DNA of 4,746 nt. It comes from a virus (lineage: Duplodnaviria; Heunggongvirae; Uroviricota; Caudoviricetes). Position 1 is the stretch's first letter. Every line of letters starts with the position of its first letter. The position numbers were made by a program, and so were the translations under genes. This document shows positions 1-4,746 of the stretch, one piece after another. Below the pieces are notes generated by a model. The model saw only the letters and a list, made by a program, of their open reading frames with translations, was not told where the DNA came from and ran no database searches. The stretch lies in IMG/VR virus record IMGVR_UViG_2675903595_000009; one strand, written 5' to 3'.

Positions 1-41
1 GCTTTGAACTCTTTAGAGTAACGTTGGGTTTTTCTGCTCAT
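1..41 (-). CDS. IS3-family transposase OrfA, N-terminal 13 codons only (5' partial gene running off the window)
   Basis: ATG at 39..41 (minus strand) with an AAGGAG SD 6 nt upstream; translation MSRKTQRYSKEFK(A). It is absent from the supplied ORF track because it is too short within the window. Confidence 0.4.
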   Translation of the reverse strand, partial: MSRKTQRYSKEFK

Positions 42-105
42 TATTAGCTCCTTCTGATGCCATTCTATTTCAGGAAGGAGTGTCCGTTAAACTCAGGCTA
101 CCTCA
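1..105 (-). mobile_element. Putative left end of an IS3-family insertion sequence (IS600-like), partial; the element continues beyond the window start. The inner boundary is uncertain (somewhere between ~70 and ~105).
   Basis: The minus strand reads 5'-TGAGGTAGCCTGAGTTTAACGGACAC...GAAGGAGCTAATA-ATG-AGC-AGA-AAA-ACC-CAA-CGT-TAC-TCT-AAA-GAG-TTC-AAA-3'. It starts with TGA like IS3-family inverted repeats, and about 66 nt further in a strong SD (AAGGAG, 6-nt spacer) precedes an ATG. The ORF running off the window start encodes MSRKTQRYSKEFK, which matches my memory of IS3-family OrfA N-termini (IS600-like). Only 13 codons are visible. Confidence 0.4.
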
Positions 106-159
106 GGTTATTCGCTTCTGGGCATGGGCGGATCAACAAATGATAGACGGTAATGCAGA

Positions 160-182
160 TTGTAACGCTCGCGGCGTTACAA
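160..182. repeat. Inverted repeat TTGTAACGC-N5-GCGTTACAA (core GTAACGC-N5-GCGTTAC); putative binding site for a dimeric protein, possibly an origin iteron
   Basis: Read directly: 9-bp perfect arms at 160..168 and 174..182 with a 5-bp spacer. The same 7-bp core arms recur at 371..389. Confidence 0.5.
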
Positions 183-370
183 AAAGTGCAATAGATCGCA
201 TCACTTTTATGTCTGGTTTTGCTGATGCGTTAATTCAGGTTGGATGGCTGGTCGAAAATGACGGAGGGCTTTCTCTACCTAACTTTGAACGTCATAACGG
301 AAAAAGCTCTAAAAAAAACGGGCGGTTACAAACGAGCGAGTAACAAAAATACGCGAACTGAAACGAAAAG

Positions 371-389
371 GTAACGCTGCCAGCGTTAC
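371..389. repeat. Second copy of GTAACGC-N5-GCGTTAC (a 19-bp near-perfect palindrome, GTAACGCTG-C-CAGCGTTAC); an extra GCGTTAC half-site lies at 406..412
   Basis: Read directly; identical core arms and spacer length to the 160..182 site. Both lie inside the replication-initiator reading frame, as lambdoid ori iterons lie inside gene O. Confidence 0.5.
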
Positions 390-414
390 ACAAACGGATC
401 AAAAAGCGTTACCA

Positions 415-432
415 GAGGAAGAGGAAGAGGAA
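415..432 (+). repeat. (GAGGAA)x3 hexanucleotide tandem repeat encoding an acidic EEEEEE stretch (frame 1) in the initiator linker
   Basis: Read directly: gaggaagaggaagaggaa. Confidence 0.85.
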
Positions 433-788
433 GATCTAAATACTGATCTCCCCCTCGCCAAAAACGAGCGTCTAAAAAATTCGAGCCGGAGGCTATTGAG
501 CTGCCCGATTGGTTGCCGGAAACACTCTGGCATGAGTGGGTCCGGTTCAGACAGGCATTGCGAAAACCGATTCGAACGGAGCAGGGCGCTAACGGGGCGA
601 TACGGGAACTGGAAAAATTCCGTCAGCAGGGTTTTACACCTGAGCAGGTGATTCGACACAGCATCGCCAATGAATACCAGGGCCTGTTCGCGCCGAAAGG
701 TGTTCGGCCTGAGACGTTGCTCCGACAGGTTAACACCGTCTCGTTGCCGGACAGTGCGATCCCGCCAGGCTTCAGGGGGTAACGGACC

Positions 789-1221
789 ATGAAAAATATT
801 GCGACAGGCGGCGTTCTGGAACGCATCCGCCGACTGACCCCGCCACATGTAACCGCCCCATTCAGAACGGTAGCGGAGTGGCGCGAGTGGCAACTTGCTG
901 AAGGCCAGAAACGTAGCGAGGAGATCAACCGCCTGAATCGCCAGTTGCGGGTGGAAAAAATTCTGAATCGCTCAGGCATCCAGCCGTTGCACCGTAAATG
1001 CTCGTTTGCGAATTACCAGGTGCAGAACGACGGCCAGCGATACGCGTTAAGCCAGGCGAAATCCATCGCCGATGAACTGATGACCGGGTGTACAAATTTT
1101 GCGTTCAGCGGAAAACCTGGTACCGGGAAGAATCACTTAGCGGCAGCTATCGGGAATCGCCTGCTGAAAGACGGTCAGACAGTGATTGTGGTTACCGTGG
1201 CTGATGTTATGAGCGCCCTGC
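789..1221 (+). CDS. DnaC-family helicase loader (phage P-like / IstB-like AAA+ ATPase), 3' end lost in the assembly gap
   Basis: ATG at 789. The translation contains the Walker A motif FSGKPGTGKNHLAAAIG and the segments NRSGIQPLHRKCSFANY and VTVADVMSAL, which align with E. coli DnaC as I recall it (NRSGIRPLHQNCSFENY ... FSGKPGTGKNHLAAAI ... ITVADIMSAM). The ORF-track extension through the N run (to 1781) is an artefact. Confidence 0.9.
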
Positions 1222-1661
1222 NNNNNNNNNNNNNNNNNNNNNNNNNNNNNNNNNNNNNNNNNNNNNNNNNNNNNNNNNNNNNNNNNNNNNNNNNNNNNNN
1301 NNNNNNNNNNNNNNNNNNNNNNNNNNNNNNNNNNNNNNNNNNNNNNNNNNNNNNNNNNNNNNNNNNNNNNNNNNNNNNNNNNNNNNNNNNNNNNNNNNNN
1401 NNNNNNNNNNNNNNNNNNNNNNNNNNNNNNNNNNNNNNNNNNNNNNNNNNNNNNNNNNNNNNNNNNNNNNNNNNNNNNNNNNNNNNNNNNNNNNNNNNNN
1501 NNNNNNNNNNNNNNNNNNNNNNNNNNNNNNNNNNNNNNNNNNNNNNNNNNNNNNNNNNNNNNNNNNNNNNNNNNNNNNNNNNNNNNNNNNNNNNNNNNNN
1601 NNNNNNNNNNNNNNNNNNNNNNNNNNNNNNNNNNNNNNNNNNNNNNNNNNNNNNNNNNNNN
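1222..1661. other. Assembly gap (440 N)
   Basis: Run of n characters; the real sequence is unknown. Confidence 0.99.
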
Positions 1662-1677
1662 AGTTTCAGGAGGATTT

Positions 1678-2100
1678 ATGGCGAAACCTTTTACTCCCGA
1701 ACAGCGGGAAGAACTGAAGACGCGAATTGTGGAACTCGTGCATCAGGACGGTCGGGTCACGATTCGGCAGTTGTCAGATGAAACAGGTATCAGTCGTGCG
1801 TCTGTCGGTCGCTTATGCATAGAACTGGTCGCAAGTGGTGATGTATATAATTCTGGCTACGGCTTATTCCCGTCTGAACAGGCTCGCAAGGACTGGCAAA
1901 GCGCCCGCAAAAAACTCTCGAGAGTAAAGGTGAGGAAACCGGTTGTTGTTGATCCGGACCTTATCTGGTCATTACCTGACGGAGAAATACGCCGCTACGA
2001 CAGGCGCCTGAATATAATCTGTCGCGAGTGCCGGAAGAGCGAAGCTATGCAGCGTGTACTGGCTTTCTATCAGGGTAATTTTCAGGAGGCGATACTGTGA
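1678..2100 (+). CDS. Hypothetical protein, 140 aa, with a predicted N-terminal winged-HTH-like region; function unknown
   Basis: ATG at 1678 preceded by a strong SD (AGGAGGA, 1668..1674). The N-terminus (IVELVHQDGRVTIRQLSDETGISRASVGRLCIELVASGDV) has the look of an HTH DNA-binding domain. The reading frame is open back into the gap, so a longer protein starting inside the gap cannot be excluded. Confidence 0.6.
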   Translation: MAKPFTPEQREELKTRIVELVHQDGRVTIRQLSDETGISRASVGRLCIELVASGDVYNSGYGLFPSEQARKDWQSARKKLSRVKVRKPVVVDPDLIWSLPDGEIRRYDRRLNIICRECRKSEAMQRVLAFYQGNFQEAIL

Positions 2101-2157
2101 ATGAAATTAGCTATCAGGCTTCAATTACCGCTGGCATTCGCATCAAAGGAGAGGAGC

Positions 2158-2514
2158 ATGGAAATAAAACCAGAAGATGAGTTAAGCAATATCGTTTTAT
2201 TTCCGGTAAAAGAGGATGACCCTCGTAATCAGGTTAATTTTCTTTATGAGCCATCGGAAAGACCATATTGCCATCACGCCTCTGTACGGGTTGACGAAAA
2301 AGAGCGTCAGGTCCGCTGTAAAATCTGCGGTGCGGTTGTGGAGCCGTTTGACTGGATGCTCTCTGTGGCAAAAAGAGAAACCAGACTGGCAGATGATGTA
2401 AGGCTATTGCGCCAGGAGGAACAGGAAAGGCGGAGAAATATAGAAAAGCTGATACAGATTGAGCGTAACGCGAAAGCGCGGATACGCAGGGCGACAAAAT
2501 CCAGAACTGAATAA
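2158..2514 (+). CDS. Hypothetical zinc-ribbon protein (C-H-H ... C-x2-C) with a basic coiled-coil C-terminus, 118 aa from the preferred start; function unknown
   Basis: ATG at 2158 with SD AGGAG at 2147..2151 (6-nt spacing). The in-frame ATG at 2101 directly abuts the upstream stop (TGA-ATG), giving a 137-aa alternative. Motif YCHHASVRVDEKERQVRCKICG; the C-terminal 40 residues are rich in R, K, E and Q. Confidence 0.55.
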   Translation: MEIKPEDELSNIVLFPVKEDDPRNQVNFLYEPSERPYCHHASVRVDEKERQVRCKICGAVVEPFDWMLSVAKRETRLADDVRLLRQEEQERRRNIEKLIQIERNAKARIRRATKSRTE

Positions 2515-2661
2515 TTAAATTTAGCACTGTTAAAAATTTAATCCTTAACCGGAGGGATTTCTGCACCCTCAAATCATCAGGAGACCACCCGAAAGGGCGG
2601 GGAGCAGTCACACATCTGTTTCCGATAGCCCCGTTCTAATGCTACACTCTTTGATATTTTT

Positions 2662-3348
2662 ATGACCCCAATAAACATATTTATGACAGTTGCTGATTTC
2701 AAACGGCCCAAATTGGAGCTCCCAAACGGGGCAAACAAACTACTACTGCACTCTTGCTGTGCTCCATGTTCCGGTGAGGTGATGGAGGCGCTTCAGGCCT
2801 CGGGAATCGACTACACCATCTTTTTCTACAACCCGAACATTCATCCTCAGAAAGAGTATTTAATTCGTAAGGATGAGAATATTCGCTTTGCTGAACAACA
2901 CGGCGTGCCGTTTATTGATGCTGATTACGACACAGACAACTGGTTTGAACGAGCCAAAGGAATGGAATGGGAGCCCGAACGAGGGATCCGTTGCACCATG
3001 TGTTTTGACATGCGTTTTGAGCGGACAGCGCTGTACGCCGCTGAAAATGGTTTCAGTGTGATCAGCAGTTCACTGGGCATTTCACGCTGGAAAAATATGC
3101 AGCAGGTTAACGACTGTGGGCGGCGAGCCGTCGCGCATTATCCGGGCATGGTGTACTGGGATTATAACTGGCGCAAGCAGGGCGGCTCGTCCCGTATGAT
3201 TGAAATCAGCAAGCGCGAAAAATTCTATCAGCAGGAATATTGTGGCTGTGTGTATTCTCTGCGCGATACCAATCTACACCGCAAATCTCAGGGACGCCCT
3301 CTTATCAAAATTGGTCAACTCCACTACGGTAAAGAAGAGAAGGAGTGA
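2662..3348 (+). CDS. queH: QueH-like epoxyqueuosine reductase (DUF208 family), 228 aa; looks intact
   Basis: Family hallmarks are present: [46 protein letters not shown] and [10 protein letters not shown] (Cys pattern CCxxC ... CxxC ... CxC). Alternative in-frame start at 2683. No obvious SD before either ATG. Confidence 0.8.
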
Positions 3349-3369
3349 TTTTATGGGGCACCTTTCTGA

Positions 3370-3399
3370 TTGATTTCATATTGGCGAGGTAAGTAGAAT
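3370..3399 (+). promoter_or_regulatory. Putative sigma70 promoter of the mok/hok mRNA (-35 TTGATT at 3370..3375, 18-bp spacer, -10 TAGAAT at 3394..3399)
   Basis: Hexamers read directly. The predicted transcript start near 3406 (GGGUGCUUGAGGCU...) resembles the 5' end of plasmid R1 hok mRNA as I recall it, and a 5' stem-loop lies at 3409..3433. Confidence 0.35.
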
Positions 3400-3454
3400 G
3401 ACTGCGGGTGCTTGAGGCTATCTGCTTCAGGCATGAACACCAAAAGGCAGATAG

Positions 3455-3527
3455 AGAAAAGCCCCAGTTAACATTACGCGTCCGGCAAGACGCTTAACAT
3501 TAATCTGAGGCCAATTTCATGCTTTGC
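3455..3527 (-). ncRNA. sok: Putative Sok-like antisense RNA overlapping the mok SD and start codon; coordinates approximate, 3' end not determined
   Basis: Placed by inference from hok/sok locus architecture plus a minus-strand promoter-like element at 3534..3562. No clear terminator was identified for it. Confidence 0.3.
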
Positions 3528-3731
3528 ACATGTAGGTTAGCCTCTTACATGCCGAAAGGCAAGGAGAAGCAGGCTATGAAGCAGCAAAAGGCGATGTTAA
3601 TCGCCCTGATCGTCATCTGTTTAACCGTCATAGTGACGGCACTGGTAACGAGGAAAGACCTCTGTGAGGTACGAATCCGAACCGGCCAGACGGAGGTCGC
3701 TGTCTTCGTAGACTACGAATCCAGGAAGTAA
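3519..3731 (+). CDS. mok: Mok-like reading frame (in-frame N-terminal extension of hok), 70 aa
   Basis: ATG at 3519 with a GAGG SD about 8 nt upstream. The N-terminus MLCTCR... resembles E. coli MokC (MLNTCR...) from memory; it shares frame and stop with hok. Confidence 0.55.
   Translation: MLCTCRLASYMPKGKEKQAMKQQKAMLIALIVICLTVIVTALVTRKDLCEVRIRTGQTEVAVFVDYESRK
3534..3562 (-). promoter_or_regulatory. Candidate sok promoter on the minus strand (-35 TTGCCT = plus 3557..3562; 17-bp spacer; -10 TAACCT = plus 3534..3539)
   Basis: Hexamers read from the reverse complement; the position inside the mok 5' coding region matches known hok/sok loci. The hexamers are only a moderate match to consensus. 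Confidence 0.25.
3576..3731 (+). CDS. hok: Hok/Gef-family type I toxin (HokD/RelF-like), 51 aa
   Basis: ATG at 3576 with SD AAGGAG (3561..3566). The translation MKQQKAMLIALIVICLTVIVTALVTRKDLCEVRIRTGQTEVAVFVDYESRK has the family's single transmembrane helix and conserved Cys; the first ~44 residues match E. coli HokD as I recall it, and the C-terminal 7 residues differ. Confidence 0.85.
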   Translation: MKQQKAMLIALIVICLTVIVTALVTRKDLCEVRIRTGQTEVAVFVDYESRK

Positions 3732-3739
3732 GAGTGACC

Positions 3740-3767
3740 GGGCGGGGAGCTGATCCCATCCCCGCCC
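3740..3767 (+). other. Perfect 9-bp stem-loop (GGGCGGGGA / TCCCCGCCC, 10-nt loop) 9 nt after the hok stop; candidate 3' structural element of the hok mRNA
   Basis: Read directly. It is not followed by a U-run, so it is probably not the terminator itself. Confidence 0.4.
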
Positions 3768-3807
3768 ACCTCTGATGTGTCAGGCATCCTCAACGCACCC
3801 GCACTTA

Positions 3808-3852
3808 ACCCGCCCATCGCTGTGATCTCTCAGCGTTTCGGCGGGTTTTTTG
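3808..3852 (+). terminator. Rho-independent terminator of the hok transcript
   Basis: GC-rich extended hairpin (CCCGCC 3809..3814 pairs with GGCGGG 3840..3845; inner stem CGCTG/CAGCG) followed by T6 at 3846..3851. Confidence 0.6.
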
Positions 3853-3871
3853 TTGTTTATTTCCGGTGAAT

Positions 3872-3899
3872 TTGATTCGCGCACCTTCGCAGATAGAAT
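3872..3899 (+). promoter_or_regulatory. Putative sigma70 promoter for the downstream small-gene operon (-35 TTGATT at 3872..3877, 16-bp spacer, -10 TAGAAT at 3894..3899)
   Basis: Hexamers read directly; they are the same two hexamers as the putative hok promoter. Confidence 0.3.
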
Positions 3900-3980
3900 C
3901 GACTCACTTAAGTAGCGCGCAGGGAGAAGAGGGATGGACCCCGAACAGGGGAGAGCTATTTATCTGGAAGGATTCTGAAG

Positions 3981-4268
3981 ATGAAAATCGAAGAATTGCG
4001 TGAAATTTTTAGTGAAAATGGCCTCTATGCTGTGCGCGTTGAGAATGGAGCGATTGTCAGCCATTGCCGCATTAGATGTTTGCAATCTCAACAAAGGAAG
4101 AGCGGTGCTGTGTTATTTTATTTTTGTAATGGACTTCTGACGGACGGTTTTATTTTGCGTGAGGACGAATTTGTCACATCATTACGGGTTTTGAAAGAGA
4201 TTGGTTTTAAGGCTGGTTTTCTGCTTTTGCTGAAGAATAAACTCATCTACAATCTTGAGCAGGATTGA
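3981..4268 (+). CDS. Hypothetical protein, 95 aa, no recognised family
   Basis: ATG at 3981 with SD GGAAGGA (3966..3972). A 14-codon upstream ORF (3934..3978) ends 2 nt before this ATG. Confidence 0.45.
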   Translation: MKIEELREIFSENGLYAVRVENGAIVSHCRIRCLQSQQRKSGAVLFYFCNGLLTDGFILREDEFVTSLRVLKEIGFKAGFLLLLKNKLIYNLEQD

Positions 4269-4306
4269 ACTCCTGCTGTGTAACACCGTGCCACCGGAGA
4301 AAGCCG

Positions 4307-4660
4307 ATGGCACATATACAACTGGTCAAACAAACCTCTTCCGGATTACTTCTCCCGGCGACGCCGGAGAGTTGCGATTTTCTGCATCAAATCAAAATAG
4401 GTGAGTGGATACACGCAGACTTTAAGCGTGTGTGTAACTACGCATTCCACAAGCGTTTTTTCAAACTCCTGCAACTGGGTTTCGATTACTGGACTCCGGT
4501 CGGTGGGGCGATCACGCCTCGCGAACGAAAACTGGTGTCCGGTTTCGTTGATTACCTGTGTGAATCAGTAGGCCGGGAACATACGCCAGCTCTGAGCGAA
4601 GCCGCAGAGCAATTGAGGTGTACTGGCAATAGCGGACACTACCATTTGTTCTTTTTTTAA
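4307..4660 (+). CDS. Hypothetical protein, 117 aa from the ATG at 4307 (the ORF track's 4265 start is a TTG overlapping the upstream stop); the C-terminus may be affected by a T7 homopolymer
   Basis: SD GGAGA (4296..4300) 6 nt before the ATG; the ORF ends ...HYHLFFF* inside the T7 run 4652..4658. Confidence 0.5.
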   Translation: MAHIQLVKQTSSGLLLPATPESCDFLHQIKIGEWIHADFKRVCNYAFHKRFFKLLQLGFDYWTPVGGAITPRERKLVSGFVDYLCESVGREHTPALSEAAEQLRCTGNSGHYHLFFF

Positions 4661-4671
4661 GCAGCCATCTG

Positions 4672-4746
4672 ATGATATTTTTCCCTGAAGGCTGCCGGGG
4701 AGATATTCCCCAGACGAGAGTGACGACGCTGACGATTGTAGAAAAT
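4672..4746 (+). CDS. Possible 5' partial ORF (MIFFPEGCRGDIPQTRVTTLTIVEN...) running off the window, or the shifted continuation of the previous gene
   Basis: Frame 1 is open from 4633 to the window end; ATG at 4672; no clear SD. Confidence 0.2.
   Translation, partial: MIFFPEGCRGDIPQTRVTTLTIVEN

Follow-up and report, generated by a model that had tools for sequence, protein, structure and literature searches.

A QueH-type epoxyqueuosine reductase gene carried by lambdoid prophages of Escherichia coli

The DNA analysed here, a stretch of 4,746 nucleotides (nt) from the IMG/VR virus record IMGVR_UViG_2675903595_000009 (this whole stretch is called the window below), carries an intact copy of queH, a gene of the epoxyqueuosine reductase family PF02677 (DUF208), within a remnant of a lambdoid prophage. 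The gene was found in 995 of the 5426 complete Escherichia coli genomes (18.3%), beside queG, which was present in 5426 of 5426, in agreement with the expectation of a preliminary description of this DNA that Escherichia normally uses QueG. RefSeq already names the protein QueH, and the identification itself is therefore not new; what appears to be under-appreciated is the lambdoid carrier and how common it is, with roughly 18% of complete E. coli genomes having the gene in addition to the QueG that all of them possess. The enzyme is known, its carrier appears not to have been described before, and the system is not of a new kind. We consider it probable that queH serves as a lysogenic-conversion gene, giving a bacterium that does not produce cobalamin (vitamin B12) a cobalamin-independent route from epoxyqueuosine (oQ) to queuosine (Q).

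An uninterrupted plus-strand open reading frame (ORF) extends over 2662..3348 and encodes 228 amino acids counted from the first ATG. The preliminary description had read it as an intact gene with the cysteine motifs of DUF208/QueH, and the motifs were indeed found at the places it gave (Table 1; residue numbers follow the 228-residue form). The product matched PF02677 (QueH) over its full length, far better than chance would allow (E = 1.9e-65; 220.6 bits, the cut-off being 23.5), residues 27-201 aligning with profile positions 1-174 of 175. It also matched the sequence of the crystallised Thermotoga maritima QueH (7lc5, 7lc7, and 9deu) with E = 5e-22 over residues 27-203, with every cysteine aligned. 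The seven metal-site cysteines (C32, C33, C36, C111, C114, C194, and C196) were invariant in all 15 aligned relatives; the metal sites of QueH comprise a [4Fe-4S] cluster and an additional iron. In place of the CCAPC of the window protein, the crystallised T. maritima enzyme reads CCAPD. The motif was present in 113 of 150 family representatives, each standing for a cluster at 50% identity, with the form CCxPC in 109 and CCAPD in 3, and CCAPC, as the majority form of the family, is therefore no peculiarity of the phage copy. The five best matches of an AlphaFold2 model of the window QueH (mean predicted local distance difference test score 76.2, predicted template modelling (TM) score 0.77, confidence moderate around residues 100-115) in the Protein Data Bank (PDB) were all T. 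maritima QueH (7lc5, 7lc7, 9d86, 9deu, and 9dco; target-normalised TM score 0.80-0.86, E down to 7e-12), followed by distant PP-loop proteins of the TtuA/TilS type with TM scores below 0.4. No NCBIfam model matched the window QueH at E <= 0.01, and the family assignment therefore draws on Pfam, the PDB, and the structure. As it retains the fold, the full-length profile match, and all metal-site cysteines of QueH (DUF208, PF02677, COG1636; structures 7LC5, 7LC7, and 9DEU), the window protein is very likely a canonical QueH enzyme; what sets it apart from the reference QueH is its lambdoid prophage carrier and a host with a QueG of its own.

Translation most likely starts at 2683, giving a predicted protein of 221 residues rather than 228, so that the ORF of the preliminary description stands and its start codon does not. 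The ATG at 2683 is the start of the RefSeq coding sequence (CDS) for the identical protein WP_012421537.1, and in a DNA alignment it was common to three prophage or phage copies and four chromosomal copies of queH. The ATG at 2662 was rejected as the start, lying inside a short 5' leader and showing no conservation in the chromosomal orthologs. A shorter form is represented in PHROGs by phrog_3217 ('unknown function'), a 188-residue profile that begins at M41 and hence lacks the CCAPC motif. The ATG of M41 (2782; region 2773-2784) is preceded by the Shine-Dalgarno-like GGTGAGGTG. This start was also rejected, as residues 15-40, HSCCAPCS among them, do not vary between genera although the DNA has changed synonymously, and the 188-residue form is therefore a gene-calling artefact. 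Phage records tend towards a truncated, unnamed QueH because of the phrog_3217 form, and this truncation may be a reason why virus surveys overlooked QueH.

Over 105-4613, the window shares 99.6% identity with a complete lambdoid prophage located next to ybhA in E. coli FDAARGOS_944 (NZ_CP065613.1), with homology to this intact prophage ending at 4613, and the two queH copies are 100% identical. The intact prophage encodes integrase, excisionase, Gam, RecE, cI/Cro, YdaT, a replication initiator, and the DnaC-like YdaV, and the prophage continues with DUF977, a zinc-ribbon protein, QueH, hokD, DUF1367, DUF1364, DUF1133, and lysis and structural genes. In the window, a truncated replication initiator, a DnaC-like loader, a DUF977/Ren-like gene, and a zinc-ribbon protein lie upstream of queH, and sok, hok, and a NinB-like DUF1367 gene lie downstream; the placement of queH between phage replication genes and hok/sok in the preliminary description was thus confirmed, though the prophage is a decayed remnant bracketed by IS600. 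The slot proved to be a fixed one. Window-type QueH is encoded by 188 IMG/VR viral contigs, and in the best 80 of these 188 loci, to which all counts of viral loci refer, DUF977 preceded queH in 75, and in 65 the hok gene followed some 900 nt after the queH start. The neighbouring immunity and replication modules were 29-100% identical across the same loci, with QueH still at least 99% identical. The one isolated phage with queH was Escherichia phage HannyBb, in which the gene is labelled hypothetical and an insertion separates it from hok. Of 74 matching phage records, 73, including those of Shiga toxin (Stx) phages, had only the hok/sok DNA in common with the window and lacked queH. Among the species representatives of GTDB, a phage neighbourhood around queH was found only in Escherichia albertii, whose representative showed 93% DNA identity to the window. 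In E. coli B-ZidR (locus L171, 9022-9687), an intact queH was found inside a decayed Qin-like prophage; this prophage carries dicB, ydfD, dicC, hokD, and rem, a frameshifted integrase gene, and an IS3 insertion. In E. coli O157:H7 Z892 (locus L170, 9872-11882), genes for a cytosine methyltransferase and a type II endonuclease of the NgoMIV family lie directly downstream of queH, replacing hok/sok.

Sequence comparison with chromosomal relatives indicates that queH was captured from an enterobacterial chromosome by a lambdoid phage. The window QueH is 79-92% identical in amino acid sequence to annotated chromosomal QueH of other Enterobacterales, including Kluyvera, Enterobacter, Scandinavium, Providencia, Photorhabdus, and Pantoea. 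The neighbours of queH in Providencia are tmcA, purC, bamC, and dapA, in Photorhabdus and Pantoea the gene is set among unrelated chromosomal genes, and in Scandinavium, Kluyvera, and two Enterobacter species (89-92% identity) it flanks ordinary metabolic and regulatory genes without phage homologs. Identity within the QueH subfamily was 74-80% to proteins of Pseudomonas, Stenotrophomonas, Sphingomonas, Bradyrhizobium, and even a contig labelled Bacillus subtilis; identity as high as this over such a distance suggests very strong constraint or wide horizontal spread, and some of the labels among the distant matches may be due to contamination. At the nucleotide level, the window and the Scandinavium copy were homologous over 2635-3352 only, a stretch that begins shortly ahead of the -10 box and ends four bases after the stop codon. 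When the upstream regions of the three prophage or phage copies and the four chromosomal copies (Scandinavium, Kluyvera, and the two Enterobacter species) were aligned, GCTACA[C/A]T was found about 35 nt ahead of the ATG in seven of seven, surrounded by upstream DNA that could not be aligned, and TG preceded this conserved -10 box in six of seven. From this we infer that the phage captured a minimal cassette consisting of a putative native promoter and the coding sequence. The left junction at 2612 was common, among the sampled prophage copies, to E. albertii, phage HannyBb, and most of the E. coli genome matches, which argues for a single capture, after which the phage-borne gene diverged under purifying selection. 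A search of the whole window against Rfam at E <= 1 returned sok only, with no riboswitch upstream of queH; the queH leader folded no better than shuffled sequences (z = -0.15); and the best matches to a Fur box in the conserved upstream region (9-13 of 19 positions) were within the range of shuffled sequences. In Enterobacter sp. ECC-175 (locus L094, 3680-6672), the chromosomal queH is located about 1 kb downstream of icd. The icd gene is a classic integration target of lambdoid phages and e14, and a position near it is a conceivable setting for capture of queH by aberrant excision.

In E. coli, queH was nearly always single-copy, with 1014 places on chromosomes and 3 on plasmids, and the match had at least 80% coverage in 985 of the 995 genomes. 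All 60 of 60 evenly sampled rows of these matches were annotated 'epoxyqueuosine reductase QueH'. The prophage-type and close enterobacterial copies were open from the shared ATG in 87 of 87 cases. Among 18 distinct prophage alleles, the mean pairwise synonymous divergence (dS) was 0.10 and the nonsynonymous divergence (dN) was 0.003, a ratio of 0.03. Prophage queH is under purifying selection.

Queuosine synthesis ends with a step that either QueG or QueH can catalyse, and E. coli has the full pathway (PMC5372724). Where PMC4646009 cites Frey 1988 and Miles 2011, the oQ-to-Q step of E. coli and Salmonella is given as cobamide-dependent and queG knockouts of K-12 as accumulating oQ. E. coli has four cobamide-dependent enzymes, QueG among them (PMC11841063), and QueH is iron-dependent (PMC13443448). 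QueG and the prophage QueH are thus present in the same cells with the same predicted reaction, oQ34 to Q34 in tRNA (PMC4646009, PMC5372724), whereas they are non-homologous, differ in fold, and differ in that QueG requires cobalamin; QueG belongs to the core of E. coli, and queH is accessory. Two reductases of different cofactor in one genome are not peculiar to E. coli lysogens. Staphylococcus aureus has both QueG and QueH, with different expression of the two, for which the authors invoke cofactor availability (PMC13443448). QueG and a chromosomal QueH also coexist in Pantoea, where the same strain and species names recur and both genes were found on one contig of 4,241,285 bp, apparently the same chromosome. 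Both genes are chromosomal in S. aureus and Pantoea, whereas the second enzyme of Escherichia arrives via a temperate phage.

These observations can be joined into one explanation, which we favour as the probable one. QueH, as a canonical iron-sulfur enzyme independent of cobalamin, would convert oQ34 to Q34 in tRNA-Asp, tRNA-Asn, tRNA-His, and tRNA-Tyr, an activity that is predicted for E. coli. A lambdoid phage would have taken queH from a chromosome of the Enterobacteriaceae with its native promoter and coding sequence only, and the gene now lies between the replication/ren and nin regions, co-oriented with the early rightward operon, so that lysogens would transcribe it from its own promoter and lytic growth would add read-through transcripts. 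E. coli is known to be unable to synthesise cobalamin de novo. As QueG needs cobalamin, the prophage copy would constitute a B12-independent route, and a lysogen would be able to finish queuosine without B12 through the prophage QueH. Selection at the level of the host would retain queH as a moron gene, and it would be for this reason that queH is intact even in decayed remnants such as the window. Whether B12 limitation is the selective agent appears to us evenly balanced. Like the lambdoid morons, queH is a foreign, phage-dispensable gene of chromosomal type (its nearest relatives are chromosomal, and most of the matching phage records are without it) that lies inside the prophage between functional modules, with replication/DUF977 on one side and hok/nin on the other, seems to have its own promoter, and persists in defective prophages. 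It differs from the usual lambdoid morons in that its promoter is putative and no terminator was detected, and in that its cargo is a tRNA-modification enzyme instead of a toxin, an exclusion factor, or a surface-alteration factor.

Several points weigh against this explanation. A consensus scan called no promoter upstream of queH, where the -35 element is weak, so that the promoter is proposed from comparative conservation only; the same scan called no terminator within 2400-3900, and the classic moron architecture is therefore only half present. No Shine-Dalgarno sequence was found ahead of the start at 2683. The set used for selection analysis was the best 80 of the 188 viral loci, which favours intact copies, and queH is absent from 82% of E. 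coli genomes. Gut E. coli are usually able to import corrinoids, and we know of no report of strong growth defects in queG mutants. Deletion of queG was without effect on the cobamide-dependent growth assayed in PMC11841063. A phenotype of queG this mild puts the fitness value of Q over oQ in doubt.

Selection might instead act on phage growth, if QueH, made mainly from the early rightward transcript in the lytic cycle, fully matured the Q-family tRNAs and thereby aided the reading of NAU/NAC codons in late phage genes. Such a benefit would be consistent with the co-orientation of queH with the replication and nin genes, with a terminator detected on neither side, with its presence in an isolated, virion-forming phage, and with its conserved position in the phage genome. 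However, the promoter box is common with the chromosomal orthologs, and queH is intact, with a dN/dS of 0.03, in prophages unable to replicate, which points to host-level selection and not to phage growth. Moreover, many closely related lambdoid phages including Stx phages have the adjacent hok/sok DNA and no queH, the four tRNAs of the NZ_CP065613.1 prophage itself (Ile, Arg, Thr, and Gly) are all outside the Q family, and the lytic cycle is short against tRNA turnover, so we regard a benefit to the phage as unlikely. Somewhat less likely again is that queH is a functionless passenger that hitch-hikes with the hok/sok addiction module and the mosaic recombination of the nin region. The recurrence of hok at about 900 nt downstream and the restriction of the gene to 18% of E. 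coli genomes would be expected of such a passenger; a dN/dS of 0.03 over a dS of 0.10, the 87 of 87 intact ORFs, and the 985 of 995 genomic copies at full length would not. Furthermore, queH persists where hok is replaced (O157:H7) or set apart by an insertion (HannyBb), and its linkage to hok is therefore not obligatory.

The preliminary description had offered that the element manipulates the wobble-position Q or that this DUF208 homolog has a different substrate, and had proposed colicin E5 sensitivity assays as one of its checks. The intact QueH as prophage cargo beside QueG was upheld, whereas 'manipulates' is too strong a word, redundancy with a different cofactor being the simplest account. 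A role in conflict, in which conversion of oQ to Q, or a Q state held constant, would alter how readily Q-family tRNAs are attacked by colicin E5, other anticodon nucleases, or defence ribonucleases and so serve superinfection or counter-defence, is very improbable: the slot does lie amid conflict cargo (the Ren-like exclusion gene, hok/sok, and type II restriction-modification in O157:H7), but nothing in the sequence favours such a role or the colicin E5 idea, the protein is an unmodified QueH of the housekeeping type, and no nuclease or immunity partner travels along with it in the annotated prophage or the viral loci. Cleavage by colicin E5 is not known to be strictly Q-dependent, which also counts against this role. 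We give equally little credence to a different substrate, either another epoxide or a 7-deazaguanine modification in phage DNA instead of tRNA. No epoxy-queuosine-type base in DNA is known to us. Phages do use preQ0-derived bases in DNA (PMC6884629), but neither a DpdA/Tgt-like transglycosylase nor preQ0-synthesis genes were found among the 61 annotated features of the prophage or in the flanks of the viral loci, and the 79-92% identity to chromosomal QueH in non-phage neighbourhoods, with every active-site cysteine invariant, makes another substrate unlikely. The phage 7-deazaguanine sets (FolE, QueD, QueE, QueC, and DpdA) resemble prophage queH in being phage-borne genes of the queuosine pathway (PMC6884629); they differ in comprising early-pathway enzymes and DpdA and acting on phage DNA, whereas the prophage here supplies the last, tRNA-specific step only and has no DpdA.

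Retention of queH by the lysogenic host as a B12-independent route thus remains the explanation that we prefer, and it would have consequences for how E. coli strains are compared. No homologs of QueA, QueG, or QueH were found in the viruses analysed by Hutinet et al. 2019 (PMC6884629), and prophage queH bears on the statement published there that viruses have no Q-specific maturation genes. We found no study characterising a phage- or prophage-borne QueH in the literature that could be searched; Zallot 2017 or Li 2021 may mention one. We advance only tentatively the wider claim that a temperate phage here alters the tRNA-modification state of its host, that queH lysogens complete queuosine without cobalamin, and that this is the first described phage-encoded enzyme of queuosine-tRNA maturation. 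If it were true, roughly one in five E. coli strains, including O157:H7, O104:H4, sequence type 131 (ST131), avian pathogenic E. coli (APEC), and lineages of E. coli B, would have another Q/oQ status than K-12 in niches poor in B12, and the decoding of NAU/NAC-rich genes would possibly be affected. If QueH is active, strains would differ in the B12 dependence of the last queuosine step, which matters for work on tRNA modification in which K-12 stands for the species; laboratory strains of the E. coli B type apparently carry queH, and B/BL21-type strains may differ from K-12 in oQ-to-Q capacity. Prophage queH also bears on the ecology of corrinoids in the gut.

Table 1. Features of the window, with queH and its motifs first
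Feature	Position	Strand	Evidence and remarks
queH CDS	2683..3348	+	221 residues plus stop; PF02677; RefSeq start; ATG common with chromosomal orthologs
HSCCAPCS motif	2749..2772	+	C32, C33, C36; aligned with C9, C10, D13 of T. maritima QueH (7lc5)
RCTMCF motif	2989..3006	+	CxxC pair C111, C114; aligned with RCERC of 7lc5; invariant
YCGCVYS motif	3238..3258	+	CxC pair C194, C196; aligned with YCGCVFS of 7lc5; invariant
Extended -10 box TGcTACACT, putative native queH promoter	2640..2648	+	Conservation across prophage and chromosomal copies
-35-like hexamer TTCCGA	2620..2625	+	Sequence inspection; 3/6, 17 nt upstream of the -10 box; inside the prophage-shared block starting at 2612
DUF977/Ren-like gene	1678..2100	+	PF06163, phrog_142; usual upstream neighbour of prophage queH
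Zinc-ribbon protein	2158..2514	+	phrog_1621; optional between DUF977 and queH, in 14/80 viral loci
hok/sok type I toxin-antitoxin	3406..3731	+	sok RF01794, 117 bits, 3406-3581; hok CDS 3576-3731, PF01848, RefSeq hokD
IS600 end, orfA start reading leftwards	1..104	-	Truncates the phage replication initiator gene
Second IS600 end, orfB C-terminus reading leftwards	4614..4746	-	Truncates the DUF1367/NinB-like gene

The window holds a 4.5-kb prophage segment with queH and hok/sok, bracketed by the ends of two IS600 (IS3-family) copies in the same orientation (Table 1). The closest records, FDAARGOS_944 and FDAARGOS_943, are without these IS600 copies, and the left junction between IS600 and the replication gene recurs at 100% identity in several further E. 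coli genomes (e.g. 97-3250 and FORC_028). The replication initiator (105-782) is a pseudogene whose N-terminus was removed by IS600; relative to the intact 262-residue gene of NZ_CP065613.1, it has gained 2 nt in the A-run at 311-313 and lost 10 nt near 449, and it therefore appears as two separate ORFs (80-343 and 513-782). The 3' half of the DnaC-like ydaV is obscured by a run of 440 N (1222-1661). Between the start of ydaV and that of DUF977, the window has 128 nt more than the near-identical FDAARGOS_944 prophage, and the masked stretch may therefore not be length-faithful or may hide an insertion. The hok/sok locus is complete, with the Rfam match to sok reported on the plus strand, overlapping the mok/hok leader, and a promoter-like TTGATT-18-TAGAAT lies ahead of it at 3370-3399.

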